Origin: Candidatus Uhrbacteria bacterium
GTDB taxonomy: Bacteria; Patescibacteriota; Patescibacteriia; UBA9934; GWF2-40-263
Reading direction: 5' to 3'
NCBI GenBank assembly: GCA_016205975.1
Contig: JACQSK010000021.1
Span: 36,324 to 100,323, forward strand
Length of the DNA stretch: 64,000 nucleotides
This document shows, piece after piece, positions 3,273 through 58,269 of this stretch (position 1 is the first letter of the stretch; each line of letters opens with the position of its first letter). The notes below the pieces were generated by a model. It saw nothing but the letters and a program-made list of their open reading frames with translations. It did no database searches and was not told the DNA's origin. The position numbers were made by a program, and so were the translations under genes.

Positions 3273-3343
3273 AGCAGGCTCATTGTATCGGACTCGGTGG
3301 AATTAGAAAACCCGTCCTGATCGAGTCGGAGGACGGGTTGCGT

Positions 3344-4258
3344 TTAGCGCTGAGGGAACAGGTCCGGACCTCTCCAGCGCCGCATGGTTGATTTGCCCTG
3401 CACGGGATGCGCGGCTTTCACCGGCTCCACCAGGACGGCCTGCGAGCGCAGTTCGCCCATGAGGACCTCGCTCTGGATGAACCGCGCTTGCCAGAGCTGG
3501 AAGAGCACCATGTGCAGATCCATCACGAGAGCAGCCTCCACGGGCGAGTAGAGCTCGCTCCCGCGCGGCGAAGGGGCCCACACGGCGCGTCGGCGCCTCC
3601 AGGCCTCGGGAATCCATCCGCCTCTCGTCGTTGGCCCGTTCACTTGCAGATCCCAGATCACCTTGGACAGGTCGAACGCGTCGCTCTGGCCTGCCCTGTG
3701 CGAGCGGATGCGCTGGTAGCCCATGGCGAGGTAGGCGGCAAAGCTCGAACCTTTTTCCACGGCGCCGCGCGGGAACAGGTTCACGGCGCGCATGCACGCC
3801 ATGTAGAGCCTGTCCGTGATCGAACCGCGACGAAGAATCTCCAGAAGATCCTTGTCGCCGGGGAACAGATCCATCTCGACGCTGACTTCCTCTTCCCGGC
3901 TCGCGGGATCCACGTCGAAGTCTGTCACGACTCCGCGCAACGCGACGAGGTTGGGGATCGTCTGTTCGGTGGGCAGGAATCCTCCGCCCACATCCACCCA
4001 GCTGATCTCGCTTGGAAACCCATCGCGATTCAGGATCGGGCTTGTGGTCCGCTCATCGGCCTGCGGAAAGTCAATGAACACGCGCCTCCACTCCCGGTCG
4101 CCCAGTTCTCCTTCGTACTCTGCGTTGATCGTGTCGCCACCCATGTTGAGCACATGGACGGCGGCCCCATGGCCCTCGTCCTCTCGGACGCGGGTTTGCG
4201 CGGTCGCCACTTGAACACGAGACTTGCTTGCCATGCTCTCTCCAGTGGGATGCCTCAT
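3344..4258 (-). CDS. hypothetical protein
   Basis: 304-aa ORF with protein-like composition and no motif I can assign; alternative start MASKSR at 4234. Confidence 0.45.
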   Translation of the reverse strand: MRHPTGESMASKSRVQVATAQTRVREDEGHGAAVHVLNMGGDTINAEYEGELGDREWRRVFIDFPQADERTTSPILNRDGFPSEISWVDVGGGFLPTEQTIPNLVALRGVVTDFDVDPASREEEVSVEMDLFPGDKDLLEILRRGSITDRLYMACMRAVNLFPRGAVEKGSSFAAYLAMGYQRIRSHRAGQSDAFDLSKVIWDLQVNGPTTRGGWIPEAWRRRRAVWAPSPRGSELYSPVEAALVMDLHMVLFQLWQARFIQSEVLMGELRSQAVLVEPVKAAHPVQGKSTMRRWRGPDLFPQR

Positions 4259-4341
4259 TCAAGCAGAGATGCAGGAGCATGTCAATCTCTCCTCCAACCG
4301 CATTTAAAAACTGGCCCAGAATGGGTCAGTTCAAGCACACC

Positions 4342-5334
4342 CTAGTGGCGCGTGAGCCGTTGTACGTAATCGCTCCCCAGTTCCTCGAGGAGGTCTGGGC
4401 TTCCCAGCTGCGTGAGATTGCCAGGATGGCGGTTGGCTCGAACGAGATCGCGCAAGGCGCCCACGCCCACGCGCGTGGTTTCCAGGCGGTCGAGCAGGTA
4501 GCCCTCGCGCCTGAGCTGCGCGGCGATTTTTCCTTCGGTGCCGCGCTCCCCGTCCTGGGCGAAGGCGGCCTTCCATAGGCTCTCCATGATCGGCAGGAAC
4601 TCCAGCACAACCACGTCCACCAGTTTGTTCTCGTGCGCGCCGCCCGGTTCCCACGGATCGACCTCGGGGACCGCGGGCACGTCCCACAGGTCCAGAGGCG
4701 GAACGGCCCACCAGGGATAGAGTCGTGAACCAAAGACGTGCAGGGGTCCCTTGAGGGGCCAGTGCGCGGCCTCGTACTTCTCACGCTCGCGCGCATTGTG
4801 ATGCGCGATTTGAGCAACGAGCTTGCGCAGGAGCTCCGTGGAGCTGGCGCGGTAGGAATACACGCGGACGAGGTCGCGGGTGAACGCGAAGGTGATTTCC
4901 AAGGTCGTTCCCTTGGGTGGAGCCAGGACCGAGAGGGATTTGTGCGCGTTGCGTATGGCCTCCACGGCGTCGTAACGCGCTTCGAGCGCTTGGGGCATCG
5001 GCGCGTCGAACACGCCGATCACGACGTTGCCGATGGCATCGCGCGGATGGCGCTGGGCGTACAACCGGCGCAGCAGGGCCGTATCGTAAGGCGAGATTGT
5101 CACGTGCCAGTGGTCCGTGATCCTTGAGAGAGAAGGCGTTTGGTCCGTGACGGTCGTGCGCAGGCCCACGGCGGCCGGGATGTGCATGCCCGAAGGCATC
5201 TGCACGATCGCGATGTCCTTCTCTCGCGCAAGCGCCAAGTCGGGCTTGATCTCCCTGCGGGACTGAACCCCTTCCAGCTGATCTCGGATGGACACCTCCG
5301 CCGTATGGACAGCGGGCTTGGATGCGTGGGGCAT
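4342..5334 (-). CDS. hypothetical protein
   Basis: tool ORF 4342..5436 trimmed to the ATG at 5334 (MPHASKPAVH...) so it does not run into rpsI; no recognisable motif. Confidence 0.45.
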   Translation of the reverse strand: MPHASKPAVHTAEVSIRDQLEGVQSRREIKPDLALAREKDIAIVQMPSGMHIPAAVGLRTTVTDQTPSLSRITDHWHVTISPYDTALLRRLYAQRHPRDAIGNVVIGVFDAPMPQALEARYDAVEAIRNAHKSLSVLAPPKGTTLEITFAFTRDLVRVYSYRASSTELLRKLVAQIAHHNAREREKYEAAHWPLKGPLHVFGSRLYPWWAVPPLDLWDVPAVPEVDPWEPGGAHENKLVDVVVLEFLPIMESLWKAAFAQDGERGTEGKIAAQLRREGYLLDRLETTRVGVGALRDLVRANRHPGNLTQLGSPDLLEELGSDYVQRLTRH

Positions 5335-5420
5335 GGAATCTCCTCCCGGCTGGATTGAAACACGGACATGGGCGAAAGTCAAAACCGCCCTGAGGAATCT
5401 CGAAGGACGGTTTATTTTTT

Positions 5421-5825
5421 CTAACGCTTGGACCACTGCGGAGAGCGGCGCGCCGATTTTTTTCCTGGCTTCTTGCGCTCGCGCACGCGCGCGTCGCGAG
5501 TCAGCATACCCAATTTTTTCAAGACGCTGCGGAACTCAGGATTGAAATTGAGCAGACCGCGGGCGATGCCTAAGCGGATGCTGTCCGCCTGTCCGCGCGC
5601 GCCGCCGCCCTCAACCTTGACCGAGATATCAAACGCGCCTTCCATGCCCGTCTCTTTGAGTGGCGCCTGAACGGAGTCTCTCAGCGTGATGAGCGGAAGA
5701 TACTTCTCGAGCCCACGCCCGTTGATGACAATTTTTCCCGTTCCGCCGTGGGTCATGCGCACGCGAGCGATGGCCGCCTTGCGGCGCCCCAGAGCCTCGA
5801 TGTATTTGCTTGTCGACACTTCCAT
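5421..5825 (-). CDS. rpsI: 30S ribosomal protein S9
   Basis: 134 aa; ...GGGARGQADSIRLGIARGL... and C-terminal ...SARRSPQWSKR are the S9 signatures; follows rplM as in the canonical rplM-rpsI operon. Confidence 0.95.
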   Translation of the reverse strand: MEVSTSKYIEALGRRKAAIARVRMTHGGTGKIVINGRGLEKYLPLITLRDSVQAPLKETGMEGAFDISVKVEGGGARGQADSIRLGIARGLLNFNPEFRSVLKKLGMLTRDARVRERKKPGKKSARRSPQWSKR

Positions 5826-5826
5826 A

Positions 5827-6183
5827 CTAATTTTTTATCGTCAGACGTTTAAGGCGCGGGGAGCGTTGTTTGTTTTTCGGCAACATGCGAGAGACAGCCT
5901 CCCTCAAGATCTTGGACGGGTCCGTTGCCATGAGTCCCTTGAGCGTGCGCTGTTTCAAACCGCTCGCGTAGGTCGTGTGCCGATAGTAGACCTTGGACTC
6001 CTTGACCGGATGGATTTTCATGCTTGCAGCGTTCACCACTTGCACGAAATCGCCTCCGTCCACGTTGGGAGCGAACGATGCCTTATGCTTACCGATCAAA
6101 AGACGCACGACCGAAGTCGCCAGGCGTCCGGGGACTTTCCCTTCCGCGTCGATGGTATGGATGTCGCGAGTGGCGTCTTTCAT
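5827..6183 (-). CDS. rplM: 50S ribosomal protein L13
   Basis: 118 aa; MKDATRDIHTIDAEGKVPGRLAT...YRHTTYASGLK matches L13. Confidence 0.95.
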   Translation of the reverse strand: MKDATRDIHTIDAEGKVPGRLATSVVRLLIGKHKASFAPNVDGGDFVQVVNAASMKIHPVKESKVYYRHTTYASGLKQRTLKGLMATDPSKILREAVSRMLPKNKQRSPRLKRLTIKN

Positions 6184-6530
6184 ACGAGTTCAATGTTCAC
6201 CATTTCCGCGCCGTCATTTTTTCGCGGCGCCAGCTTCACGATGCGCGTGTAGCCGCCCGGGCGCGTCCCGTAGCGCGGGCCCAGTACTTCCAGGATTTTT
6301 TTGACGGGATGCTCCGTGTAGAAAAACGCCAGGAGCTGGCGGCGCGCCGCGAGCGTTGGCTTCTTGCCAACGGTGATCGCTTTTTCCACCAGCGGCCGAA
6401 CGGCCTTGGCCTTGGCCTGCGTCGTCTTTATCTTCTCATACAAAATCACGCTCGCCGCCAGATTGCGAAGCAACGCCTCGCGCGGCGCTTTCTCTCGGTC
6501 CAAGATTTTTCCTTTGTTTCGATGACGCAT
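6180..6530 (-). CDS. rplQ: 50S ribosomal protein L17
   Basis: 116 aa; MRHRNKGKILDREKAPREALLRNLAASVILYEKIKTT is the L17 N-terminus; directly downstream of rpoA. Confidence 0.95.
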   Translation of the reverse strand: MRHRNKGKILDREKAPREALLRNLAASVILYEKIKTTQAKAKAVRPLVEKAITVGKKPTLAARRQLLAFFYTEHPVKKILEVLGPRYGTRPGGYTRIVKLAPRKNDGAEMVNIELV

Positions 6531-6538
6531 AGACCTTT

Positions 6539-7249
6539 CTAACCCTCCTGTGACTCGCTGCGCGTGCCAGGCGTGAGCAGCGCAAAAGAATCGATCAATA
6601 GTTTGGCAGACTGTTCGACGGCTTCCTGCGGCGTGACCGTGCCGTCCGTTTCAATGGTCATGATGAGCTTGTCGTAGTTGGTGATCTCGCCCACGCGCGT
6701 ATTCTCCACGCGGTAGCCGACGTTCCGGATCGGCGAGAAGAGCGCATCGATCGCGATCGTGCCAAGCTCCTGGACCTCGTTCACGCGCTCCTCGGTGGGC
6801 GAGTATCCGCGTCCGCGGCGCACCGTGAGCTCCATCTCCAGGCTCGCGCCGTCTTCCGTTACGGTGGCGATGACCAAATCGCTATTCACAATCTCGACGT
6901 CCGCGTTGGGCTGGATGTCGGCGGCGGTCACGCTCTTGGCCCCTTTCACCGAGAGGGTCAGCTTCACGGGCTCGTCGGAAAAACATTTTAACCGCAGCGA
7001 CTTCAGATTCAAAATGATCTCCAGCGCGTCCTCTTTGACACCCTTCACTGCCTGGAACTCGTGGTTCACGCCTTTCATCTTTACGGCGGTCACGGCCGCG
7101 CCGGGAAGCGAAGACAAGAGCACACGGCGCAAGGCGTTGCCAAGCGTCGTGCCGTATCCATGAAAACAAGGCTCGACAACCAAGATTCCCTCGTGAGGGC
7201 GGCTGCCGGCTTCGTATTGGATGCGCGATGGAAGAAGGATGTTCTCCAT
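6539..7249 (-). CDS. rpoA: DNA-directed RNA polymerase subunit alpha, N-terminal domain only (no alpha-CTD)
   Basis: tool ORF 6539..7369 trimmed to MENILLPSRIQYEAG... at 7249; alpha-NTD dimerisation/assembly region recognisable; stop lies 8 nt before rplQ, so no CTD is encoded. Confidence 0.85.
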   Translation of the reverse strand: MENILLPSRIQYEAGSRPHEGILVVEPCFHGYGTTLGNALRRVLLSSLPGAAVTAVKMKGVNHEFQAVKGVKEDALEIILNLKSLRLKCFSDEPVKLTLSVKGAKSVTAADIQPNADVEIVNSDLVIATVTEDGASLEMELTVRRGRGYSPTEERVNEVQELGTIAIDALFSPIRNVGYRVENTRVGEITNYDKLIMTIETDGTVTPQEAVEQSAKLLIDSFALLTPGTRSESQEG

Positions 7250-12720: not shown

Positions 12721-13908
12721 TTAGGGCTTAGGGGCATCGTCTTTGCGTCTGGGTTTGAAGTCTGTGCGCGCAAGCGTGGCGAGCGCGACTACGAGCAAGA
12801 GCGCCAAGAAAATCACGGCCACAAGGACGACGGGGTTTTGCAGGTGGAAGAACGGCACGGTCACGGTCGCATGCTCAGTGGAGCTCTCGCCGCTGTCCTG
12901 TTCAAGCGTGAGGGTCACCTCGTAGGCTCCTGCGCGGTTGTAGGTGTGCGTGACTTCCGTCTTGGACGAGGCAACGCCATCGCCGAAATCCCATCGCGCG
13001 CCGCTCCCATCACTGACGGGCGTGAGTCGCGTGAAGGTAAACGTGTTCCAGGAGTCGCGCGTATAGCGAAACGCAGCGTTGGAAGAAACGTTCTCGTCGC
13101 CAGGGGCACGCGTGCTCGCTTCGTCTGCGACAGGGCTCTGCGCGTCCGTCTCCTCAGGCGCCTGCGTGGCTTGAATGCTCTCGGCTACCTGTAAGATGAG
13201 CTCCTTGAATGCCACGCTCGTCGTTGCCTCTGGCGCAACCGTGCTCGTCTCCTGTCCTTCCTCCCGCGCCGCGGGAGGTTCCTCTCTCACGCGCTCCGGG
13301 TCCATGGGAAAGGCGTCGCTTGCGTCCTGAACGCCGTCCCCGTCTGAATCCGTCGCGAGCGTCTCGGTTCCGATCTCTTGTTCCACCTCGTCGCTCAAAC
13401 CGTCCCCGTCGTCATCGTTGTCGCAGGCATTCCCCTGTCCATCTCCATTCGTATCCGTCTGGTCCGCGTTGCTCGTGCTTGGACAGTTGTCTGTGTCATT
13501 CTCCACGCCGTCGCGGTCGTCGTCTACGATCGGCGTAAGGATGCCGGTGACCGCGGTGTTGTTGCTCTCGTTTACGTCAACGGGATCTGTCCCGCGCACT
13601 TGTGCCTGGATGTTAAAATCGCTTGTCGGAACAACGAAATCCACATAAACCTCCTCGGCCGAGCCGAAAGCCAAAACCGAAATGACGAGCGAATCGCCGA
13701 TGACCGTCGCTCCTTGATAAAACGTCACGTAGCCGGACACGTCTTCATCGCCCAGGTTATCAATCGAGGCGTAGATGCGCACCTGGTCCCCGGCCACCAG
13801 TTGGTCCTTTGAGAACCGGATGTCGCCGGCCTGAATATCCAAATCTGCGCGCGCGAACGCCACGGCGGGAAACAGAAAGGCGAAGAGGAGAAGAATGAGT
13901 CTTTTCAT
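12721..13908 (-). CDS. secreted, C-terminally membrane-anchored surface protein with thrombospondin type-3 Ca-binding repeats and a PKD domain
   Basis: N-terminal signal peptide MKRLILLLFAFLFPAVAFA; Asp-rich DxDxDGxxD repeats (DDDRDGVENDTDNCPSTSNADQTDTNGDGQGNACDNDDDGDGLSD); PKD-like ...WDFGDGVASSKTEVTHTYNRAGAYEVTLTL; C-terminal hydrophobic anchor followed by a basic tail. Confidence 0.6.
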   Translation of the reverse strand: MKRLILLLFAFLFPAVAFARADLDIQAGDIRFSKDQLVAGDQVRIYASIDNLGDEDVSGYVTFYQGATVIGDSLVISVLAFGSAEEVYVDFVVPTSDFNIQAQVRGTDPVDVNESNNTAVTGILTPIVDDDRDGVENDTDNCPSTSNADQTDTNGDGQGNACDNDDDGDGLSDEVEQEIGTETLATDSDGDGVQDASDAFPMDPERVREEPPAAREEGQETSTVAPEATTSVAFKELILQVAESIQATQAPEETDAQSPVADEASTRAPGDENVSSNAAFRYTRDSWNTFTFTRLTPVSDGSGARWDFGDGVASSKTEVTHTYNRAGAYEVTLTLEQDSGESSTEHATVTVPFFHLQNPVVLVAVIFLALLLVVALATLARTDFKPRRKDDAPKP

Positions 13909-22881: not shown

Positions 22882-23676
22882 CTATCCTAGCAGCAGGATC
22901 AAAAATCCGACAAGGACGCGGAAGACGGCGACCTCTGAGAAGCTGTAACGCTTCAGGAACGCGAGCAGGAGCTTGATGGTCAAGAGCGCGGTGAAAAAAG
23001 CCGCGAGGAAACCGACCACGAGCGGCTGGATCGCGATCACGACAGACCCGTCCAAAATCGCCAGCAGTTTGTACAGTCCGGCGGCGGCCGTGGCCGGGAG
23101 CGCGAGGAGAAAAGAAAACCGCGCGGCCGTCTCGCGAGACAGGCCCAAAAAAAGTCCGCTGGTAATCGTGATGCCTGAGCGCGACGTCCCTGGGATGAGC
23201 GCGATCGCCTGCGAGAGTCCGACGAGAAACATCTGCTTGGGGCTCACGCTTGTAACCGCGTCCTTTGGGCGCTTGGCCCTACGGTCGGCCAGGTAGAGCA
23301 CGGTTCCCCAGATGATGAACGACCAGGCCACTACTTCGGTCGAACGCAGAGGTCCCTCGATGACGTCTTTCAGCGCATAGCCGATCACGAGCACGGGGAT
23401 CGTCGATAGCACGATCCACACGCCCAGTCGGCGCCAGCGCCCGCTGCCCTCCTGCCTGGGAGCGCGAAAGGCACCGACGATCGCCGCGACTTCGCTCCAG
23501 AGCGCGACGATCACGGCTGTGAGCGTGGCCAGATGCATGAACGCATCAAACGCCAGATCCTGCACGGGCCAACCGAGCGCCTCCGGCACTAAAATCAAAA
23601 ACCCCGAACTCGAAATCGGAAGGAACTCCGTGATGCCTTGAACGATGCCAAGGGTGAGGGCCTGAAACATGGTCAT
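22882..23676 (-). CDS. uppP: undecaprenyl-diphosphatase
   Basis: 264 aa polytopic membrane protein; N-terminus MTMFQALTLGIVQGITEFLPISSSGFL is the UppP/BacA signature. Confidence 0.9.
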   Translation of the reverse strand: MTMFQALTLGIVQGITEFLPISSSGFLILVPEALGWPVQDLAFDAFMHLATLTAVIVALWSEVAAIVGAFRAPRQEGSGRWRRLGVWIVLSTIPVLVIGYALKDVIEGPLRSTEVVAWSFIIWGTVLYLADRRAKRPKDAVTSVSPKQMFLVGLSQAIALIPGTSRSGITITSGLFLGLSRETAARFSFLLALPATAAAGLYKLLAILDGSVVIAIQPLVVGFLAAFFTALLTIKLLLAFLKRYSFSEVAVFRVLVGFLILLLG

Positions 23677-23685
23677 ACGCGTCTC

Positions 23686-25872
23686 CTAGTCGAACCGGAT
23701 CGTCTGCCCAGACCGTACCGCGCCTGTCGCGGGAGTCGAGGGTCTTGGCGCGGGCGATGGCGCATAGGCGGGCCTCGCCCGAAGGACGGGCACGGCCGAG
23801 GGAGCCCCTGCTCCCGCATTGGGTATCGATGGCGGTGCAAGGGGCGTCGAAGGTACATGGGTTCCATTTGGAACAGGAGCGCCGCCGCCTTTTTTCCCGC
23901 GCCGCCGCCGCTTCTTTTTCGCCGCGCCGTCCGATCCTTCTGCGCTTGGTGCAAACTCCCGCTTCGCCTCAGGACGAGGCACGGAGGACTCTTGCTTGCG
24001 CGCCTCACGAATCTTATTCAAACACTCCTCGCAGTACGCCGGGCGCGAGCGATCCAATTTGACGCTCGTATGAAATGCCTTTCCGCAATCTGCACAGTGA
24101 TAGGGTTGAGAGGGCGACGGCGTCCCAGAGGTGAGATTCTCAGGGCCTTTAGGCCCTTCCGGAGGAATGCCGAGGACGAGATTCTCAGGGCCTTTAGGCC
24201 CGTCCGGAGGAACGCCCCTAAAGGGGCTTTGAATTACGGAGGGCGCAAGCGCCGCGAGACTCACGGGCGGCTCAGGTGAAACCTTCTCCACCGGTGCGCC
24301 TTCCGTGGGCTTGGGTACGGGAGAACTCGACGGACTTGCCGTTGCTGACGCGGAGGCAGGCTTGGGCACGAACGGTCTGGATTTCTTTCCTCCCTTGCGT
24401 TCCTCGCGCACCAGCTCAATGCAGTCATCGCAATAAATCGGCCGCGAGCGGTCCAGCTCCACCGGCAGGATGATCTCCTTGTCGCAACGCGAACATTTGT
24501 ATTCGAACCGCGGCTTCTTGCTTTCCTTGGACGCTTTCTTTTTATCCTCAGCGGCCTTCAGCAGAGTGTCCATGTCCGCTCCCTCCATGCCGCTCCATTG
24601 CAAAATCTTTTCCTCAATCACGCTCCTGGGCTGCGCATAACGCTCGCGCGAGACCTTGATAACTTTCTCCTGCGAGTGCGTCACCTGGGCGATCGGCGGC
24701 AAGGTGATGGCCGAGAAGGGCTGGCTCGTCACACCGTCGATCAAAAGCTTAATGTAGACGTTGTACTTGGGCAGGTTGATGACGTCCTCAGGCGTGAAGC
24801 GCGGCATGAACTCGGTCTCCATGAACGTCGCGTCCGGCGAGCCGACGCGGAATGTGATGATCGTCCCGACGTTTCCGAACACGGCATCGCGCACTTCCTC
24901 GCTCAGCTGCGCGACGTACTGGTGCGCCATGGTCAAACACAGGCGGTACTTACGCGCCTCGGACAAAATACTCGCGAACGATTCCACGGCAAAATTTTGG
25001 AACTCATCCACATAGAGATAAAAATCCTTGCGCTCCTCCTCAGGAATCTCCACGCGCTCCATGGCCGCCAGCTGCATCTTAGTGATGAGGAGTCCCCCCA
25101 GCAGACGCGAGTTGTCCTCGCCGATTCTTCCCTTCGACAAATTGATGATGAAGATTTTTTCCGAATCCATGATCTCGCGCACGTTGATGGTGGACTTCAC
25201 CTGCGCCACGATGTTACGGATGACGACCGCCGAGAGGAACTGACCGATCTTGTTTTGGATCGGCGCCACGGCCTCCTGCGCGTACTTTTCGTTATAAGAA
25301 GCGAACTCCACCAGCCAGAACTGCTTGACGACCGGATCCTTCACATTGCCAACGATGCGCTTGCGGAACTCGGCATCGGAAAGCAGACGGTTGATGCCCA
25401 AGAGCGTCTGGCCGGGATTATCCAAGAGCGCCAAGAGTGTGTTGTTCAAAATATATTCCATGCGGCTGGACCACATGTTCTCCCAAATTTTCTGGAACAC
25501 GCCCATCATGCCGGAGACGACCAGGTGCTTGTGGCTGTCGCTCACGGCCTCCAAAATATTGAAGCCGACCGGAAACTCCATGTCCGCCGGATTGAAGTAC
25601 ACCACGTCGTTCATGCGCCAGCTGGGAATAAAATCAATAAGCCGCTCGGCCGTGTCGCCGTGGGGATCCACGTACGCGCAGCCGTGGCCCGCGTAGATGT
25701 CCGACAAGATGAGGTTCTCCAGGAGCACCGTCTTGCCCATGCCCGTCTTTCCAATCACATATACATGACGGCGGCGGTCGTCGGTCTTGATGCCGAACTT
25801 GGTCATCTTGTTGCGGAAGTTCGTCTTCGCAAAATAGTTGACCTCGTGGTCGTGGTCATGGTTGTACGACAT
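23686..25872 (-). CDS. FtsK/HerA/TrwB-superfamily P-loop ATPase (TraD/VirD4-coupling-protein-like NTPase domain, DUF87-like) with two C-terminal zinc-ribbon motifs
   Basis: 728 aa; Walker A RRRHVYVIGKTGMGKTVLL, Walker B FYLYVDEFQNF; no N-terminal TM segment; C-terminal Pro/Ala-rich region contains two paralogous CxxC-x17-CxxC units (KCSRCDKEIILPVELDRSRPIYCDDCIE and HCADCGKAFHTSVKLDRSRPAYCEECLN) and an internal 15-aa tandem duplication; start 4 nt after the upstream membrane-protein gene. Confidence 0.7.
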   Translation of the reverse strand: MSYNHDHDHEVNYFAKTNFRNKMTKFGIKTDDRRRHVYVIGKTGMGKTVLLENLILSDIYAGHGCAYVDPHGDTAERLIDFIPSWRMNDVVYFNPADMEFPVGFNILEAVSDSHKHLVVSGMMGVFQKIWENMWSSRMEYILNNTLLALLDNPGQTLLGINRLLSDAEFRKRIVGNVKDPVVKQFWLVEFASYNEKYAQEAVAPIQNKIGQFLSAVVIRNIVAQVKSTINVREIMDSEKIFIINLSKGRIGEDNSRLLGGLLITKMQLAAMERVEIPEEERKDFYLYVDEFQNFAVESFASILSEARKYRLCLTMAHQYVAQLSEEVRDAVFGNVGTIITFRVGSPDATFMETEFMPRFTPEDVINLPKYNVYIKLLIDGVTSQPFSAITLPPIAQVTHSQEKVIKVSRERYAQPRSVIEEKILQWSGMEGADMDTLLKAAEDKKKASKESKKPRFEYKCSRCDKEIILPVELDRSRPIYCDDCIELVREERKGGKKSRPFVPKPASASATASPSSSPVPKPTEGAPVEKVSPEPPVSLAALAPSVIQSPFRGVPPDGPKGPENLVLGIPPEGPKGPENLTSGTPSPSQPYHCADCGKAFHTSVKLDRSRPAYCEECLNKIREARKQESSVPRPEAKREFAPSAEGSDGAAKKKRRRRGKKGGGAPVPNGTHVPSTPLAPPSIPNAGAGAPSAVPVLRARPAYAPSPAPRPSTPATGAVRSGQTIRFD
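24133..24222. repeat. 45-bp tandem duplication inside the ATPase gene
   Basis: gagattctcagggcctttaggccc(t/g)tccggaggaa occurs twice 45 bp apart; encodes GIPPEGPKGPENL x2. Confidence 0.8.
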
Positions 25873-25875
25873 AGC

Positions 25876-27513
25876 TCACGTGGGAAGGTTAGGTGGAACA
25901 AAGCCATCGTCATTCGTGTCGGCGTTCTCTTCGGTAGGCGCAACAGGATGCGGGAGCGTCTCGGAGAGCGGCTCGTCCGACTCGGGCTCAGCAATCCCCG
26001 CGCCAAGAAACGACGGCGCGCCTTCTTCCTCAGGCGCAAAAATATCCGGCGCGCCAGGCAGCGACTGCTCGACAAACGTCATGGGGAGTCCCGCGGGCGG
26101 TTCGCCGCGCTTGGACTCGCTCTTCTTCACGAGCGGCGCCTTGATCGAGATGGCTGGGAAGTGCCAGAGCGTGGCCAGCTCCTCGGTGTTCAAAAAAACA
26201 GGATTCGCGCCGATGCCCCAGCCGCGTTTTTTGTAGCCGGTCATGAGGGTCTTCTGTTTTTTCGTGTAAACCCAGCGCATCCAAAAATAATCGTCCTTGG
26301 GGACCTGCGGGATGTACAGCGTAAACTTGTTCAGGTTCAGGTGCGTAAACTGGCTCCAGATGCCCTTCACAATGCCCGTGCGCTCGACTTTCACAAACGC
26401 GTTCTTCTTGGCAATGTAGATCACACGGATCTTCACGCCCAGCCCGACTTTGCCCGCCTTGAGCAAAATCGCTTCCGCCTCCTCTTTCTGCGCAGGCGAG
26501 ATCTTAAACGCCTTCCAAACGTCCGCTTCTTTCGCCTCGCCCCCAGGAAGCAACAGGCCGCTGAGATCCACATCCATCGCCTCTTTCAGAATCTCGTTGG
26601 GAATCGTCAGGAGCGACTCGGACGCTGAATCGAGAAAACTCTTTTTCTTTTTCTCCTCCACACCATACATGGTGTTCACATACTTCAATCCCTTTTTCAT
26701 CCAATCGTTGGTCGAAGGCTGCGCCAAAATCTGAATCCAAAAATGCTCGCCGGGGCGCATCGTCGCCAGCTGTTCGAGCGTGTATCCCAACGGATCCTTG
26801 ATCTCCTGCGAGATGCGATCCTCAAAGTTCACGTACGTGCGGATGGGGTACATGGAGTCGCGGTCGAGCGTCATCTCTCCGCCCCACATCTCGTACTCGT
26901 CGTTGGGATAGTCGGACGGAAACGCGAGCGTGTAGTCCTCGATCTCGCTGATCTGGGCATCGGGATAGTGGGCATAGATGCCTGCTTCGACCACGTCGCG
27001 GAACCGCGTTTGCGTGCGGATCACAAATTGGATATACCCCTCCGTCGAGACGATCTCAAACGAAAAAACCGGATGGAGCTTTCCGTCGATCCAGATTTCC
27101 TTCCAGGTGAGCGAGGACTTCGTGCCGTAGAGGTTCGCGTAAAAGTTTTCCATGGCCTTGGGCGTCTGCTCGGTCATGGAGGGAACATCCACAGCCAGGT
27201 AGGTGAACTTGAGCTTTGCCGAGTACAGCCCTTGGCGGTAGTCCTGCCAGACAATGGTGAATCCCCAGGCGAGCGTCACGGCGATCGGAATCCATCCAAA
27301 CCAAATCAGGAAGTCAAAAAGAATGGCATCAATGGGCTGGTCAAAGTAGGAAGCCGACTGGGCAGCCGCGGTTGTCGCTTGTCCGATGATCGGGATCGCA
27401 AAAAAAGAAAACATAAAGAGGGTCGAGACTAGTATAACAAAAAACCGGGGATGAACCCAGTTTTTTTGTTTGTGGATGAAGTCGGTTAGACGTTCTTCAA
27501 CCATTTCTCCCAC
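25876..27513 (-). CDS. membrane protein, two N-terminal TM helices plus large soluble domain, function unknown; operonic partner of the ATPase
   Basis: 545 aa; TM1 FFVILVSTLFMFSFFAIPIIG, TM2 ILFDFLIWFGWIPIAVTLAWGFTIVW; about 430-aa soluble domain with no motif I can assign; acidic/Pro-rich C-terminal tail. Confidence 0.55.
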   Translation of the reverse strand: MGEMVEERLTDFIHKQKNWVHPRFFVILVSTLFMFSFFAIPIIGQATTAAAQSASYFDQPIDAILFDFLIWFGWIPIAVTLAWGFTIVWQDYRQGLYSAKLKFTYLAVDVPSMTEQTPKAMENFYANLYGTKSSLTWKEIWIDGKLHPVFSFEIVSTEGYIQFVIRTQTRFRDVVEAGIYAHYPDAQISEIEDYTLAFPSDYPNDEYEMWGGEMTLDRDSMYPIRTYVNFEDRISQEIKDPLGYTLEQLATMRPGEHFWIQILAQPSTNDWMKKGLKYVNTMYGVEEKKKKSFLDSASESLLTIPNEILKEAMDVDLSGLLLPGGEAKEADVWKAFKISPAQKEEAEAILLKAGKVGLGVKIRVIYIAKKNAFVKVERTGIVKGIWSQFTHLNLNKFTLYIPQVPKDDYFWMRWVYTKKQKTLMTGYKKRGWGIGANPVFLNTEELATLWHFPAISIKAPLVKKSESKRGEPPAGLPMTFVEQSLPGAPDIFAPEEEGAPSFLGAGIAEPESDEPLSETLPHPVAPTEENADTNDDGFVPPNLPT

Positions 27514-28385
27514 GCAACTAAAGCGGGGCTGGCAAAAAAGATGGAGGAGTACGTGCCCACGGCGATGCCGATCATGAGAGCCAGGGCAAAGGGGCGCGTG
27601 GTTTCGCCGCCGAAGAAGAAGATGGCGGAGAGGGCTAAGAGGGTTGTAAGTGAGGTATTCAGCGAACGGACGAATGTCTGGCGGATGCTCTTTTCCACAA
27701 CCTCCGGGAACGGCTCGCCGGTGTGATGGGAAAGGTTTTCACGCGTGCGGTCGAACACCACAACGGTGTCCGAGATTGAGTATCCCAGGATCGTGAGAAT
27801 CGCGGCGACAAATCCAGAACCGATCTCCCAATGGAGGAAATAACCCAACAGCGCGAACACGCCAAGCGGAATGATCACGTCGTGCGCGGCCGTCAGCACC
27901 GTGATAAGCCCGTACTTCCAGGAAGCGATCGGCTCGGACACTTTTCGGAACGCCCAAGAGATGTACAGGCCGATGAGCACGAGGGTGAGCCCCACGCCCA
28001 TGAGCGAGGAACGGCGCAGCTCGGTCCCAACGGTCGGTCCGATCGAGTCGAACCTGAGCTCGGTGAACGCGCCAAAGCGTTCCTCCAGAGCCGCCAGGGT
28101 CGCCTGATGCTGTGCCTCGTCCTGCGTGACGGAACGGATGATGAGTTTATGGTTCTCGTCCGCCGACTGGACCGAGATACTCTCGAGGGACGCGAGGACG
28201 TCCTTCACCTCCTGGATGGCGGGCGCGCCTTGCTCGAATGCGAGCTCCATGAGTGAACCGCCCGTGAAGTCCACGCTGAACCTCAATCCAAAGACGAGAA
28301 GCGCGATCACGCTTAAAAGGGTCAGGACAAGCGAGAGGCCAAACCACGCCTTGCGCCATCCGACGAAAGAAAAAGAAGACATCAT
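27486..28385 (-). CDS. secF: protein translocase subunit SecF
   Basis: 299 aa; ...VDFTGGS..., six TM segments, SecF family; 4-nt overlap with secD. Confidence 0.9.
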   Translation of the reverse strand: MMSSFSFVGWRKAWFGLSLVLTLLSVIALLVFGLRFSVDFTGGSLMELAFEQGAPAIQEVKDVLASLESISVQSADENHKLIIRSVTQDEAQHQATLAALEERFGAFTELRFDSIGPTVGTELRRSSLMGVGLTLVLIGLYISWAFRKVSEPIASWKYGLITVLTAAHDVIIPLGVFALLGYFLHWEIGSGFVAAILTILGYSISDTVVVFDRTRENLSHHTGEPFPEVVEKSIRQTFVRSLNTSLTTLLALSAIFFFGGETTRPFALALMIGIAVGTYSSIFFASPALVAWEKWLKNV

Positions 28386-30445
28386 ACGTTTTTGTTTCGT
28401 GTAAGCCCGTACAGCGCCGGAGACTGGAGACCGCGCGCGGTGCGGATCGTTTTCATGTAGGCGCGCGTGACCGTGATAGCCGTAAACAGGGACAGGAGCA
28501 CGCCCACGGCCAGCGTGAGGGCGAAGCCGCGCACGAAGCTGGAGGTAAAGCTGTACAAGACCGCCGCGGAGATGAGGGTTGTGAAGTGTCCGTCGCGGAT
28601 CGGCGCCCAGGCGCGTTTGAACCCTTCATCGATGGATGAGGTGAGATCGCGGCCCGTGCGGTACTCGTCCTTGATGCGTTCAAAGATGAGCACGTTCGCG
28701 TCCACGGCAATGCCCAAGGAGAGGATCAAACCGGCCACGCCCGAAAGCGTGATGGTCACGCCAAAGAGGCGATACGCCGCCAGGTTCAAGACGACATACA
28801 GGATAAGCGCGAACGTCGCGAGCAACCCGGGCAGCCGGTAGACGGCTATCATGAACAGCACGACCAGGGCAAAACCGATGAAGGCGGCAGACAGGCTTTT
28901 CTGAAGTGAGGCCAATCCCAGCGTCGGCCCCACGGTCTCCTGCGACAAGAGCTCCACGGGAACCGGGAGCGCGCCGGCGTTCAGACGCTGTGCCAAGAGC
29001 TTGGCTTCCTCAAGCGTGAAGTCGCCGGTGATGACCGCCTGGCCGCCATAGATGGCCTGCTGTACCACGGGTGTGGAGATCGGTATTCCGTCCAAGAAGA
29101 TCGCAATAGGCTGGCCCACATACGCCTCGGTAAGCGCGCCGAAGAGCTCGCCTCCCTCGCCGTTGAACGTAAGCGCGACAAACGGCGTGCCGGCATTCTG
29201 GTCAAACTGCACGGCCGCGCGTTCCAGATGCTTTCCGGAGAGCTCTGAGTTTACCCAGTCGGACGCTTCTGGGACAACGTCCGTGAGATCTGAAAATGGC
29301 ATCAGCACGCGCTGAATCGTGTACGTTTTGAGCGCGCGTTCGTCCGTCTTATAAATGAGGTGATACCCGAACTCCGTCTCCACCACGTCGGAAATCCCGC
29401 CGACCGGAAGCGCGCTGGCCGCGAGCCCGAACGCGGGCACGTACTGATCGGGCAGGGCATATCCCAGGTCGCCGCTGTTGGAAGCGGCGGAAGGGTCTGT
29501 GGAGTTTTGGAGCGCGAGCGCGGCAAAGTTTTCAGGCGTCGCCTGGCTCTTGAGGTTGTTGATCTGGATCGAGGCATCGATTTGCTTGACGCCGCTCGTG
29601 CACCCCGTCTTGCCTTCAAAACAGATTAGGATGTGCGAGAGGCGCATCTCCTTTTTTTCTTCCTGGCTCACGTACTTAAACACGCTCACGCCGTCTTCGT
29701 TTTCAAGCAGGTTGCCGTACACCGAACCGGGAGCCATGCCCCGCTCGATCATGATCGCGTACTCGGCAAGATACGAGTCGTTGGTGACGTTGTTGATGAT
29801 GCCCTTGGTGACGGCTAGATTTTTGTCGATACTCTTTTCTGCTACGAGTGCGTCAAAGTCCTCTCCGGAGAGCGCGCGATTCAAAACGGCACGTGCGGAA
29901 GCGCGCTCGGCTTCGTTCAGAGCTGCGAGCTGGGAGAGCTCTTCTTCCGTTGGGTCACGATCGACCTCTTGTCCAGGCGTCTTGAACTCCAGAACCGGCG
30001 TCTCGCCGATCAGGGCAATCGCTTGCGACACGTCCAGCACGCCCGCCAACTCGATGATCACCCGATACGTGCCGCCGGTCGTGGTCGTCTGCACCACGGG
30101 CTCGGACACGCCAAACGCATTCACGCGCCGCTCGATCACGTCGCGTACGCCTTCCAGCGCCGCGCCGCGGTCCGCATCCGGAATCTCGCTCATGTCCGCC
30201 TCGTAGACCAAGTGCGTGCCGCCCTGCAGATCAAGACCCAGTTTGAAGGGTGACTCCGCCAGCGTGGGAGCCAGCCAACCGGTTTGGGCTTGGAGGAATG
30301 AAGCGCCTCGGTTCCAGAGAAACGGAAAGTCGTACACGCCGATACCAAGCGTCGCGACAAGCAGCAGCACGGCCGCGAGCCTCAGCCCCCAGTGCTTGTG
30401 TGCGGCTTTCGGCGCTGCCTTCTTTTTGAGTTTCCAGGTTTGCAT
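28382..30445 (-). CDS. secD: protein translocase subunit SecD with an inserted parvulin-type peptidyl-prolyl isomerase domain
   Basis: 687 aa; N-terminal TM plus periplasmic domain and C-terminal 5-TM SecD core (…LDLQGGTHLVYEA…; …TLSGVAGLILSLGIAVDANVLIFERI…); residues about 265-380 (LSHILICFEGK...SNSGDLGYALPDQYVPAFGLAASALPVGGISDVVETEFGYHLIYKTD) carry the PpiC/parvulin rotamase signature. Confidence 0.85.
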   Translation of the reverse strand: MQTWKLKKKAAPKAAHKHWGLRLAAVLLLVATLGIGVYDFPFLWNRGASFLQAQTGWLAPTLAESPFKLGLDLQGGTHLVYEADMSEIPDADRGAALEGVRDVIERRVNAFGVSEPVVQTTTTGGTYRVIIELAGVLDVSQAIALIGETPVLEFKTPGQEVDRDPTEEELSQLAALNEAERASARAVLNRALSGEDFDALVAEKSIDKNLAVTKGIINNVTNDSYLAEYAIMIERGMAPGSVYGNLLENEDGVSVFKYVSQEEKKEMRLSHILICFEGKTGCTSGVKQIDASIQINNLKSQATPENFAALALQNSTDPSAASNSGDLGYALPDQYVPAFGLAASALPVGGISDVVETEFGYHLIYKTDERALKTYTIQRVLMPFSDLTDVVPEASDWVNSELSGKHLERAAVQFDQNAGTPFVALTFNGEGGELFGALTEAYVGQPIAIFLDGIPISTPVVQQAIYGGQAVITGDFTLEEAKLLAQRLNAGALPVPVELLSQETVGPTLGLASLQKSLSAAFIGFALVVLFMIAVYRLPGLLATFALILYVVLNLAAYRLFGVTITLSGVAGLILSLGIAVDANVLIFERIKDEYRTGRDLTSSIDEGFKRAWAPIRDGHFTTLISAAVLYSFTSSFVRGFALTLAVGVLLSLFTAITVTRAYMKTIRTARGLQSPALYGLTRNKNV

Positions 30446-30512: not shown

Positions 30513-31730
30513 CTAGACTCCTGGAAGCCGGACCGTTTGTTCTGACTCCTGAGGCGCAGGAGAAAACACCCGCTTATCCGGCCAGTGGTGAACCGTGCGC
30601 AACGAAGCAAGATAGGCCCCTGACCGCTCATCGAGCTCGTGCGGGTGCCCTGGGAGCAGGTCGAGTCGCTCTTTCATACCAAGCATCTTCGCCATGCCGT
30701 TTAAGGTACGCGCGTAGTTGGTAGCGTTCAACAGGTCATTGGAAGACCGCTGGTCAATTGGGTCTGAGGCAAGGAGTCGCTCGGCGGCCGTGCGGGCGCC
30801 GGTCCATTCATTTTCTCCGAACGGATCAACAATCAGGTACGTCCACTTCCCTTCCTCGTTCCTGTACACGCGAACATTCCCGCCGCCGGCCATGTCGAGC
30901 ATCTCGTGCGTATTCACGGTGAAGGCCATCAGGCGACGCGTGAGATCGCGCAGGACGTCCGCGAGCTCATGATCCTGTGCGGCCTCTTCAAGCAGATGTA
31001 TCGTGCCCACGTGGAGGAACTTATAAAACAGGCTTGCGTCAAACGGTTCCTCCTCGCTGAACGCCATCCGGTTGAGCCGCTGGTACTCAGATACCGGGAT
31101 GTCGTAGCGCTCCACGTAACGGAACCCGAACGAGTGCACGTCTGGGTTGTGGCCCTCTTCTTTCTTCTCCGTTCTCGCCGCCTCTGGGATCGTCTCTTGA
31201 TAATGGACGATCGTCGGGACGCGAATGGTCGAGGCGGGAGCGAGGTCTGCCAGAGTATTGTGTTCGAGGATGGCTTTGGCGACTTCAGGCGTGACCGGCA
31301 CATCGCGCAGCGTTGCACGCGTCGTGAGCAAGTGAGAAGCGGGAAACGAACGGCGCAAGGCCGTCATGAACGCCGCCTCCCGCTGGAGCGCCTCTTTCAT
31401 CGCCTCGCGTTCGTCTTGATGCTCGTGCATGGCCTGTGCGCGATCGCGCACGCCCGCGTCGTCTGCGGTGGGGAACGGCTGAGCCTCCCAGCGCGCAAAC
31501 GCCTCGCGCAGCACGCCGCGCTTGAGATGGTACATGTCGGCCTTCAGGACCGCACCGCGGTGCGTTCCCTCGCGACCTTCCTTCTGGCGTACGCGAAAAA
31601 CGACGCTCTCACCGCCGTGGCCGGCGTATTCCAGATTGTCTGAAAGCAACGGATCGCGCGTGCGTTCCTCGAGGTGTTTAGCCGCAAGTTCTGAGACGCG
31701 ATCGGATGATTCGTGAAACATAAATCCCAT
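30513..31730 (-). CDS. hypothetical protein with protein-kinase-like fold features
   Basis: 405 aa; Gly-rich loop-like YAGHGGESVVFRV, VLK Lys, catalytic-loop-like MLDMAGGGNV and DPFG (DFG-like) in kinase order; tentative. Confidence 0.45.
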   Translation of the reverse strand: MGFMFHESSDRVSELAAKHLEERTRDPLLSDNLEYAGHGGESVVFRVRQKEGREGTHRGAVLKADMYHLKRGVLREAFARWEAQPFPTADDAGVRDRAQAMHEHQDEREAMKEALQREAAFMTALRRSFPASHLLTTRATLRDVPVTPEVAKAILEHNTLADLAPASTIRVPTIVHYQETIPEAARTEKKEEGHNPDVHSFGFRYVERYDIPVSEYQRLNRMAFSEEEPFDASLFYKFLHVGTIHLLEEAAQDHELADVLRDLTRRLMAFTVNTHEMLDMAGGGNVRVYRNEEGKWTYLIVDPFGENEWTGARTAAERLLASDPIDQRSSNDLLNATNYARTLNGMAKMLGMKERLDLLPGHPHELDERSGAYLASLRTVHHWPDKRVFSPAPQESEQTVRLPGV

Positions 31731-38846: not shown

Positions 38847-40127
38847 CTAGCGCTGCGTGGTGCTTCGGATGACGCGCGGCTTGAGATGCGTGCGATCAAT
38901 CCACTTGAGCACTAAATTGTCGTGAACCGTATTCCAGACGACCGCCCCGTTCTCCGTATGGAGATTCCACGCAAGCGGCACGGCCGTGAGCCTGCGTCCG
39001 TGAACAATGGGCTGATCCCACACGCCGTCATGCACGATCACGGCGTCGATCCCACCGCTCTCGCTCACGAGCGCCTCGGACACGCGCAGCCCTTCGGCAA
39101 ACGCACGCTCCGTCGTTGCACTCACGAGGCGCTCATGCGTCTGACCTCCTTCCGTCACTCGGATACGAGCCGCGCACGAGGAACCGTCGTGCGACCAGAA
39201 AATGTCCTGGCGCGCGAACGTGAAGTGGCCCTCATGGAGAACCTCGTGGTTCAGCAAGAGCCGCCGCTCATCGCCCTTTGCCTCGCGCGGCCGCACGAGT
39301 GTCAGGAGCACCGCCTGCGTGGGCGAGCTCCAAACATCCTCGATCTGGCCGTCGATCAACAAGCTGAAAGGATCTCGACCCTTGAACGCACCAACCTCCA
39401 TGAGGCTTGACCGGTACGGCGTGCGCGTCGCCAAGAGACAGCGTCCCTGCCACTGCACCAGCCTCACGGCCGAATCATTCGACGCTCGCTTCGGCTCGCA
39501 AACAGGCACAAGCGCGGCAAAGGGCTCGATCCCGTTCTCCGCCACGCGGTAGGCGTAAGGGCGGCCGTCAAGCTCCTCGATGACGCACAGCGTCCCGTCC
39601 GCATACGGCTCGACCTTGGATCCTGGCCTCACAGGGAACAACCCCCATGGCGTGATGATCGCGTTCTCCCCTGGGAAGCGTTCACTCTCCCCAACGGGCA
39701 AACGGACAAAGCCATTGCCATAGGAACCCTTGATGCGCTCCAGGCAATAGAGGAACGTCCGCGCCTGCGGAGCCACGAGCCAAACGCCCGGCGGATAGCC
39801 GCTCACGCAGCCCCAGACGAGCACGTGGCGCTCTCCGATCTGCAGAATGCGCGTTCCCCCATCCTCCTTGGAGGGAGAGCGCTGAAAACGAATGTCTGCG
39901 TCAAACGACGAATGGAACAACTCGTCCTCGTCGCAGCACGCGCGCACCATCGCCATCTGTGAACCCGTCGGCGTGACAGCAAGCTGATCCCCGGCAATCA
40001 AGCCTCGGAGCATCTGCGGATTTGGGGTGATGGGGAGGGTGCAGATCGTGTGCATCTCGCCGCTGAACGAGGGCTCGGTGAGATGCACGACATGATGACT
40101 GGGCCGGGGAGCGCCTATCGTTGCCAA
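38847..40127 (-). CDS. hypothetical protein
   Basis: 426-aa ORF, protein-like, no assignable motif. Confidence 0.45.
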   Translation of the reverse strand: MATIGAPRPSHHVVHLTEPSFSGEMHTICTLPITPNPQMLRGLIAGDQLAVTPTGSQMAMVRACCDEDELFHSSFDADIRFQRSPSKEDGGTRILQIGERHVLVWGCVSGYPPGVWLVAPQARTFLYCLERIKGSYGNGFVRLPVGESERFPGENAIITPWGLFPVRPGSKVEPYADGTLCVIEELDGRPYAYRVAENGIEPFAALVPVCEPKRASNDSAVRLVQWQGRCLLATRTPYRSSLMEVGAFKGRDPFSLLIDGQIEDVWSSPTQAVLLTLVRPREAKGDERRLLLNHEVLHEGHFTFARQDIFWSHDGSSCAARIRVTEGGQTHERLVSATTERAFAEGLRVSEALVSESGGIDAVIVHDGVWDQPIVHGRRLTAVPLAWNLHTENGAVVWNTVHDNLVLKWIDRTHLKPRVIRSTTQR

Positions 40128-56306: not shown

Positions 56307-56369
56307 TGATCAGCCTCTCACGCTCATCCCGAGCGTGAGAACCTCAACCGTCAGCGTGGAGTATTCGTC

Positions 56370-58244: not shown

Positions 58245-58269
58245 TCGACACAACGTCGATCAGGTCAAC

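Follow-up and report, generated by a model that had tools for sequence, protein, structure and literature searches.

What do two adjacent genes of a Patescibacterial genome, one for a membrane protein and one for a soluble ATPase, form together? The genes in question lie in a stretch of 64,000 nucleotides (nt) of Candidatus Uhrbacteria bacterium (GenBank assembly GCA_016205975.1, contig JACQSK010000021.1, positions 36,324 to 100,323 of the forward strand), hereafter the window, and all positions below count from its first letter. Both are on the minus strand. Gene 1 (25876-27513; an open reading frame (ORF) of 545 residues when read from GTG) encodes a DUF8128 (PF26449) membrane protein, and gene 2 (23686-25872; 728 residues) a soluble ATPase of the type found in VirB4 C-terminal domains and in type IV coupling proteins (T4CPs), with a zinc-ribbon tail. 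The best homologues are from Candidatus Uhrbacteria and other Patescibacteria. The original prediction, made from the DNA letters, was a split, membrane-coupled motor of the FtsK/HerA/TrwB class, and this is now strongly supported, because the two genes are almost universally adjacent, are fused in phages and encode complementary folds, one like the N-terminal domain (NTD) of VirB4 and the other like the VirB4 C-terminal domain (CTD) and T4CPs; the translocation of DNA or protein we can only infer. We give a probability of roughly 45% to the reading that the pair is a split motor of the VirB4/VirD4 branch of FtsK-HerA-type ATPases that handles DNA or nucleoprotein largely independently of type IV secretion systems (T4SSs). 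Its parts are not equally firm. A split VirB4/T4CP architecture is very likely and a membrane-tethered oligomeric motor is probable, while a DNA substrate together with independence from a T4SS is a tentative proposal.

Judged from the sequences, the strongest evidence that genes 1 and 2 form a pair is the natural fusion in phages. The PHROG family phrog_5156 (824 positions) matches gene 1 at positions 50-358 (E-value 2.6e-14) and gene 2 at positions 402-806 (3e-58). In gp156 of Bacillus phage G (825 residues), the DUF8128 profile aligns with residues 15-322 (hhalign probability 97.4%, E-value 1e-11) and the ATPase with residues ~380-770, at 29% identity (1e-40). SPO1-like Bacillus phages carry an equivalent of the fused protein of ~900 residues; in the 906-residue protein of the SPO1-like phage SP8 the match is weaker (probability 67%, E-value 5e-5). 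The fusion with DUF8128 was found only by the PHROG profile and hhalign, and tblastn of DUF8128 on phage genomes gave no match. Gp156 and phrog_5156 contain the same two modules as the pair, collinear with the gene order, but in one chain, without an N-terminal transmembrane (TM) helix (the gp156 profile match starts at residue 15) and with no zinc ribbon detected. The context of gp156 is also different, being viral: immediately upstream of the fused gene (2861-5338 in locus L081) lies gp155 (1196-2845), encoding a VirB4/TraG-P-loop-like ATPase, and jumbo phage G thus holds two T4SS-family ATPases.

The same pairing is seen in cellular genomes. A scan of one genome per species yielded at least 596 confirmed DUF8128 loci, and the 80 that were kept span Uhr-, Falkow-, Magasanik-, Kerfeld- and Buchananbacteria, Paceibacter and Minisyncoccota. 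Adjacency was counted in the 69 loci with at least 1.8 kb of downstream sequence, and the ATPase gene immediately follows DUF8128 on the same strand in 66 of them. DUF8128 proteins that are 28-30% identical to the query likewise have the ATPase directly downstream. The original prediction had asked whether the genes stay adjacent in relatives, and had named a lack of synteny, or an ordinary VirD4 inside a T4SS locus, as findings that would speak against it; the pair is syntenic and its ATPase is not such a VirD4. In the window the two large genes are co-directional, as described at the outset, but the gap between the gene 1 stop codon and the gene 2 ATG is 3 nt (GCT, 25873-25875, minus strand) instead of 4. 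The junction reads CCC ACG TGA GCT ATG, with both genes in one frame, and in locus L071 they overlap by 8 nt. By its gene layout the pair is a conserved, translationally coupled two-gene unit. Across loci, the motor domain has a median identity of 69% (range 59-98), versus 53% for SecD, 51% for SecF and 40% for DUF8128, and the motor domain is more conserved than SecD in all 43 loci compared. A second, paralogous ATPase gene, 37-43% identical to that of the window, directly follows the first in ten loci (L012 at 5509-6924, L016, L019, L020, L023, L024, L026, L027, L030 and L031); the L012 paralogue (471 residues) has no C-terminal tail, and the window has no paralogue.

Gene 1 belongs to a large family that has been named only by number. 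The NCBI protein P0001 (512 residues), which is 100% identical to the gene 1 product, carries the precomputed annotation PF26449.1, as do all 120 homologues among the matches listed; UniRef names the homologues 'DUF8128 domain-containing protein', and an exhaustive HMMER scan gave 1,829 clusters at 50% identity. The single protein gave no match in the local Pfam (E-value of 0.1 or below) or NCBIfam collections, PADLOC gave none, and the family profile matched nothing in the PDB; the literature searched does not mention the DUF8128/PF26449 family. Structure was more informative. An AlphaFold2 (AF2) model built from an 80-sequence alignment has a mean predicted local distance difference test score (pLDDT) of 83.7 and a predicted TM-score (pTM) of 0.76, with pLDDT above 90 over most of residues 60-465. 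The first 12 Foldseek matches of this model are all chains of TrwK, the VirB4 of R388, with probabilities of 0.92-1.0. No P-loop proteins are among the fold matches listed, and the match is therefore to the N-terminal domain of VirB4. The domain of ~430 residues, originally described as being of unknown fold, can thus be replaced by a predicted cytoplasmic domain similar to the VirB4 NTD and without a P-loop, at residues ~100-465 (26119-27216, minus strand). Two other identities for DUF8128 were rejected. A degenerate T4CP or pseudo-ATPase paralogue is contradicted by hhalign of the two family alignments (0.1% probability), by the lack of a Walker A motif and by the lack of P-loop fold matches, and the hhalign comparison detected no mutual sequence homology between the gene 1 and gene 2 families. 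Against a nuclease similar to NurA, working with a HerA-like ATPase, neither RNase H nor NurA was among the fold matches.

Gene 2 encodes a nucleotide-binding domain (NBD) of the FtsK-HerA class. The Walker motifs attributed to it in the original prediction were recovered by regular-expression match on the minus strand, Walker A as GKTGMGKT (residues 41-48, 25729-25752) and Walker B as YLYVDE (residues 285-290, 25003-25020). In orthologue alignments Walker A is largely invariant, T43 and M45 varying only in paralogue rows, and DEFQNF at Walker B is invariant, so that the catalytic motifs are essentially unchanged across lineages. The AF2 model of residues 1-500 (pLDDT 77 overall, pTM 0.68) has a RecA-like core with pLDDT of 71-95 per 10-residue block, mostly 80-94. 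Between the Walker motifs the modelled secondary structure forms an all-alpha insertion of eight helices (residues ~112-236, 25165-25539), in the position of the T4CP all-alpha domain or of the VirB4 helical insertion. No 19-residue window in the 728 residues exceeds 1.5 on the Kyte-Doolittle scale, in line with the earlier view that this ATPase lacks the N-terminal membrane anchor of its relatives.

At the sequence level, T4CPs (TrwB, PDB 1e9r; VirD4; DotL/IcmO; TraD) are the best family for gene 2. The protein passes the cut-offs of PF10412 (TrwB_AAD_bind; 42.9 bits, cut-off 20.5) and PF12696 (TraG-D_C; 25.9 bits, cut-off 22), and its best sequence matches in the PDB are TrwB and DotL. Below their cut-offs are PF02534 (17.6 bits against 20.1), PF12846 AAA_10 (12.6 against 27.5), DUF87 (17.8 against 23.2), which places the protein outside HerA-NurA and HerA-type defence ATPases, and PF01580 (FtsK/SpoIIIE; 16.8 against 24, around the P-loop only), which places it outside FtsK. 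All TraD, VirD4 and VirB4 equivalog models failed, the NCBIfam TraD, CD1115 VirD4 and TrbC models being far under their cut-offs and the VirB4 model TIGR00929 giving an E-value of 0.028 and 12.6 bits with a cut-off of 643. The likeness to T4CPs extends to the NBD, whose all-alpha insertion may correspond to the all-alpha domain of TrwB or to the helical insertion of VirB4, and to a variable C-terminal extension, which binds substrates or adaptors in T4CPs. The differences are the missing N-terminal TM domain, a partner that resembles the VirB4 NTD, conservation far above the usual and the absence of relaxase or T4SS genes nearby in the 64-kb window. The ATPase is one of the 'orphan T4CP homologues' of Patescibacteria known from an earlier survey, which found 5,713 VirD4-type homologues in 2,918 genomes and raised their possible exaptation (Quinonero-Coronel et al. 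2025, PMC12102498). The earlier statement that no known system could be assigned was therefore too strong, since the ATPase passes PF10412, its partner is an existing family and the ATPase family has been counted; in the literature searched, the pair, its partner and its architecture were not found described.

The designation 'VirB4-like' comes from folds and architecture, because the sequence hidden Markov models (HMMs) return a T4CP-like and not a VirB4-like protein. The gene order of the pair is the domain order of VirB4, and gene 1 (TM helix plus NTD-like domain) followed by gene 2 (CTD-like) would therefore reproduce a VirB3/VirB4-type protomer in two pieces. The structures compared were TrwK of R388 (PDB 7o42, 7o41 and 8rtd) and the VirB4 C-domain of Thermoanaerobacter pseudethanolicus (4ag5). 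In the models, an NTD fold followed by a RecA-like ATPase is provided by genes 1 and 2 together, and VirB4, as predicted for the pair, associates with the membrane via a small TM element that adjoins the NTD. The VirB4 NTD of R388 is wrapped by VirB3 with two TM segments, and in the central VirB4 ring the subunits touch one another through both their N- and C-terminal domains (PMC9259494). By analogy, the TM helix of gene 1 may substitute for VirB3. Fusions of VirB3 to VirB4 occur in some systems. Unlike VirB4, the pair is not a single polypeptide recognised by the VirB4 sequence model but two ORFs parted by TGA and GCT, has its own TM helix on the NTD piece and a zinc-ribbon tail on the other, and lies in a housekeeping operon instead of being encoded with VirB3, VirB6, VirB8 or pilins. 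There is a precedent in monoderms for a separate protein of this kind in the TrsD and TrsE(VirB4) proteins of pGO1-type and Patescibacterial T4SSs. TrsD is a remote homologue of the N-terminal portion of VirB4 and a separate protein beside it, and TrsD homologues adjoin a genuine virB4 in 1,664 of 2,272 cases (PMC12102498). TrsD thus adjoins virB4 while DUF8128 adjoins a T4CP-like ATPase.

The tail of the ATPase is basic, flexible and rich in proline and alanine. It contains the two CxxC-x17-CxxC units seen in the original prediction, the first as CSRC-x17-CDDC (residues 460-484, 24421-24495, minus strand; pLDDT 78-94 over residues ~451-490) with matches to PF23477 and TIGR04272, and the second as CADC-x17-CEEC (residues 593-617, 24022-24096, minus strand), with matches to PF09723 and TIGR02605 at residues 591-619. 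The scores of 33.6 bits for PF23477 (cut-off 27) and 36.1 bits for TIGR04272 (cut-off 36) are at or above the thresholds. With four cysteines in 2-17-2 spacing these are predicted zinc-binding ribbons of the zf_Tbcl_2 treble-clef type; Methanosarcina mazei proteins with CxxC-x17-CxxC units bind zinc (PMC12704099). Most orthologous ATPases at 60-70% identity also carry PF23477, and a ribbon of this kind is therefore a family-wide feature and not a local oddity. The 45-bp tandem duplication reported between the ribbons was likewise recovered (24133-24171 and 24178-24216, minus strand, 95% identical, encoding PPDGPKGPENLVLGI and PPEGPKGPENLTSGT); Tandem Repeats Finder missed it and a separate repeat search detected it. 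An imperfect tandem repeat with a 23-nt period is located at 23880-23929, in the coding region of the low-complexity C-terminal tail. We assume that it encodes the Lys/Arg-rich run (KKKRRRRGKKGG), in which case this repeat, like the 45-bp duplication, would point to slippage in the evolution of the tail. At the other end of the ATPase, a His/Asp-rich motif NHDHE(N/H)E (25843-25866) is conserved.

The membrane part of gene 1 depends on its start codon, which is ambiguous. The NCBI model of the identical protein begins at M34 (ATG 27414, 512 residues), and this is probably the start, with ATG 27504 also possible. In loci L002, L004 and L006 a stop codon lies just upstream of the methionine equivalent to M34, and loci L008 and L009 leave 3-4 open codons. 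A GGAG stands 2 nt before ATG 27504, and the local sequence before ATG 27414 has nothing resembling a Shine-Dalgarno motif. Of the two N-terminal TM helices originally proposed, one holds across the family and the other does not. The helix at residues ~62-88 (27250-27330, minus strand, delimited by hydropathy), which contains LIWFGWIPIAVTLAWGF, is kept family-wide, in two alignments and in the 80 loci, and distant relatives show this single TM segment. The first hydrophobic stretch in the Kyte-Doolittle scan (residues ~24-46 of the 545-residue ORF, 27376-27444, minus strand) is present only with a start at GTG 27513 or ATG 27504 and is not kept in relatives. The large domain of gene 1 is predicted to be cytoplasmic because basic residues follow the TM helix (positive-inside rule). 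It is followed by a disordered acidic and proline-rich linker (25879-26118, minus strand, pLDDT below 55), which ends in the motif VPPNLPT (25879-25899) at the extreme C-terminus. Across the family, the linker is variable and the C-terminal motif has the form PPxNLP[VITF]. In 37 of the 40 loci listed, as in 31 of 31 rows of one alignment, PPxNLP either forms the C-terminus or is only a few residues away from it.

The envelope genes noted around the module in the original prediction are indeed there, all on the minus strand in the case of the nearest ones. Directly upstream of gene 1 are secF (27486-28385) and then secD (28382-30445), both identified with Pfam, and 9 nt downstream of gene 2 is uppP/bacA (22882-23676; Pfam BacA, 4e-74), with murJ 11 kb from the pair. 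The genes secD, secF, gene 1, gene 2, uppP, an HD protein gene and mnmA form a dense co-directional array in which gaps are at most 12 nt or genes overlap, the exception being the secF-gene 1 junction, which has a 71-nt gap from ATG 27414 and an overlap from GTG 27513 or ATG 27504. The surrounding genes are housekeeping genes, among them those for glycosyltransferases, rpoA, alaS, corA, era, secA, murB, murC, ychF, recA, ftsK and rpoB. A complete FtsK with 4TM, alpha, motor and gamma domains is encoded separately at 53210-55531. SecD of the window has a PpiC/parvulin-type rotamase insertion (residues ~255-369, PF00639, 1.3e-22) between the SecD_1st and P1-head Pfam matches, upstream of the SecDF P1-head. 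The fusion of SecD to a peptidyl-prolyl isomerase looks lineage-wide, because the distant relative L087 has the same architecture (790-2850). Adjoining murJ, a 395-residue protein (12721-13908, minus strand) with a PKD domain and a below-threshold match to a thrombospondin type-3 repeat is probably a surface or adhesin-type protein. Three minus-strand ORFs have no Pfam match: 30513-31730 (405 residues), kept beside secD in several close relatives at 37-61% identity; 38847-40127 (426 residues); and 56310-58253 (647 residues), located where the GC content of the window is highest (~0.65) and overlapped by an equally long ORF on the opposite strand.

A counterpart of the pair may exist in another member of the phylum. 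SEML1_0293 of Southlakia epibionticum (921 residues, 'T4SS DNA-binding domain-containing protein', PF10412 from residue ~402) is encoded directly downstream of the essential Sigma70_r4/HARE-HTH gene SEML1_0294 and is non-essential at all time points of transposon sequencing (Tn-seq), while a second T4CP-like protein of this organism, SEML1_0142, is essential (Wang et al. 2023). SEML1_0293 has room for an N-terminal domain of DUF8128 size, and it follows a Sigma70_r4 and HARE-HTH gene, as the pair does in L071, L084 and L087; unlike the pair, it is apparently fused. By domain layout and synteny it is probably a fused orthologue of the pair. Genes with Sigma70_r4 and HARE-HTH domains are found directly upstream of DUF8128 in Patescibacteria more distant from the window, in L071 (6787-7923), L084 and L085 (4815-5936) and L087 (4830-5897). 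The paralogous ATPase of the ten loci mentioned above might be the second T4CP-like gene that the literature reports for each genome, and the counterpart of SEML1_0142.

How could such a pair work? In the scheme that we propose, gene 1 would contribute the TM anchor and a cytoplasmic VirB4-NTD-like domain, which in R388 is the membrane-proximal, VirB3-wrapped and ring-contacting part, and gene 2 the RecA-like motor with intact Walker motifs, the all-alpha insertion and the ribbon-bearing tail. The two proteins, made by translational coupling (3-nt gap here, overlap in relatives), would join on the inner side of the membrane into a protomer resembling VirB4, as the phage fusions, synteny and folds suggest. 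Protomers would then form a ring, as they do in relatives of the motor, and ATP hydrolysis would move or remodel a polymer at the membrane, with the zinc-ribbon tail as a possible handle for a substrate or an adaptor. In this view Patescibacteria would have exapted the module for a housekeeping task, such as the uptake or handling of DNA, and it would not belong to conjugation. A DNA or nucleoprotein substrate and a largely T4SS-independent role are favoured together, on the grounds that all the nearest families are DNA or nucleoprotein pumps, that the tail is basic and zinc-ribboned, that the motor is conserved far beyond T4SS parts, that the genes are in a housekeeping location and that the probable orthologue SEML1_0293 is dispensable while the T4SS is essential. 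The dispensability of SEML1_0293 was also counted as leaning to DNA; ComEC is likewise dispensable for viability in S. epibionticum (review PMC12857230).

Several observations weigh against this reading. By sequence HMMs the ATPase resembles T4CPs and not VirB4 (12.6 bits with TIGR00929), and the Foldseek TM-scores of gene 1 are low, ~0.3. In three loci the ATPase is not directly after DUF8128: L067 has only a partial ATPase match ~7 kb downstream, and L072 and L078 have none in the available sequence. The strongest conserved neighbours, secDF, uppP and in one lineage pilB/pilC, point to the envelope and protein export and not to DNA. The very high conservation of the motor sits oddly with a non-essential presumed orthologue in Saccharimonadia, an orthology assigned by synteny and domain layout. 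Finally, a PPNLP tail appended to residues 1-500 of the ATPase stayed undocked in AF2 (pLDDT 34-45), in a monomer prediction that is uninformative for an oligomer.

If the T4CP-like sequence is taken at face value, the pair could simply be what serves the Patescibacterial T4SS as its coupling protein, with genes at a distance from the virB4 cluster. DUF8128 would then bring the TM-less ATPase to the inner-membrane platform, and its VirB4-NTD-like domain would fill the VirB4 docking sites (the equivalents of VirB3, VirB6 and VirB8) and feed substrates to the channel. This remains a serious rival, albeit an unlikely one. It agrees with the matches to PF10412, TraG-D_C, TrwB and DotL, with the R388 structure, in which the NTD is the VirB3-wrapped domain and ring contacts involve both domains, with the separate TrsD beside VirB4 and with the VirB4/TraG-P-loop ATPase gene that adjoins the fused gene of phage G. 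T4SSs are moreover widespread in Patescibacteria, and their T4CP genes usually lie far from virB4 (PMC12102498). However, just 148 of the 5,713 such genes are near virB4, and relaxases are nearly absent from the phylum (PMC12102498). No VirB4, VirB6, VirB8 or relaxase domains were detected in the scanned ORFs of the window, and no VirB3-, VirB6- or VirB8-type partner is recognisable there, such proteins being too divergent in Patescibacteria for Pfam (PMC12102498). The motor is 59-98% identical across candidate phyla while T4SS parts are barely detectable in the phylum, the fixed neighbours of the pair are secDF, uppP and a sigma-like gene and not T4SS genes, and the T4SS genes of S. epibionticum are essential while SEML1_0293 is not. 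The neighbours themselves could instead be taken as the clue, in which case the pair would be a Sec- or envelope-linked protein motor, co-expressed with SecDF, that extracts or feeds membrane or secreted proteins, such as pilins or adhesins, at the membrane as VirB4 does with pilin. A role of VirB4 in pilus biogenesis, which requires extraction of the VirB2 pilin from the inner membrane, has been discussed (PMC9259494). In 55 of 62 loci SecF is encoded upstream in the same direction as the pair (at most 600 nt away in 35 of these), secA is near the pair in the window and in several loci, uppP recurs downstream, even in the distant locus L084, and the PPxNLP peptide conserved at the C-terminus hints that DUF8128 docks onto a further conserved protein. 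In L084, pilB (MshEN and T2SSE domains) and pilC (T2SSF) replace secDF upstream of the sigma-like gene and the pair (1777-4703), with BacA/UppP still after the pair. The presence of pilB and pilC counts for such a motor, the replacement of secDF against it. Gene order may be inherited and not functional, sigma-like or other genes part secF from the pair in some lineages, and the basic zinc-ribbon tail and all nearest families point to nucleic acid. We regard a protein motor of this kind as improbable.

Two further systems combine an ATPase of this class with a partner protein. An anti-phage defence or conflict module of the HerA, DptH or MADS type, with DUF8128 as effector or sensor, would account for the match of the ATPase to the PADLOC model mad8 (4.6e-18), for weaker matches to HerA models and for homologues in phages. 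It is nevertheless very improbable, because the partner has no PADLOC match and no nuclease, Sir2, NurA or RNase H fold match, and the pair has a fixed chromosomal position among housekeeping genes, occurs in at least 596 of the species-representative genomes scanned and is exceptionally conserved, the opposite of defence islands. Hardly credible is a pair like that of type VII secretion, in which the membrane protein would correspond to EccE and the ATPase to EccC of the FtsK family, because the structural match to EccE-EccC is much weaker than that to VirB4. EccC has three NBDs and its own TM segments, while gene 2 has a single NBD, and Pfam found no EccB/EccD, WXG100 or EssB-type genes among the window ORFs scanned.

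The reading of a split, largely T4SS-independent VirB4/VirD4-branch motor can be extended further, by giving the VirB4/VirD4 family a third lineage that had gone unrecognised. This would be an autonomous membrane motor, independent of T4SSs and perhaps present very widely in Patescibacteria (matches in at least 596 species-representative genomes), split in ABY1/Paceibacteria-type members and fused in large Bacillus phages and, probably, in Saccharimonadia. We consider this extension doubtful. If true, its core job might be to pull in or hand over DNA in a ComFA- or Ced-like manner, serving nucleotide scavenging and competence, or alternatively to couple DNA transport to the Sec and envelope machinery.

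Genomes of Patescibacteria, or Candidate Phyla Radiation (CPR) bacteria, are tiny, yet keep on average ~2 'coupling-protein' homologues each, far from any T4SS. What is new here is that one of these orphan T4CP homologues is very likely half of a VirB4-like machine, of which DUF8128 would be the other half, and that the two are fused in phages and the motor is more conserved than SecD. A vague annotation could in this way give way to a complex of two defined components whose architecture can be tested. SEML1_0293 offers a probable orthologue in a genetically tractable organism, and its non-essentiality makes phenotyping of a knock-out feasible. The pair also bears on the divergence of VirB4 and VirD4 and on the equivalent genes of jumbo and SPO1-like Bacillus phages.

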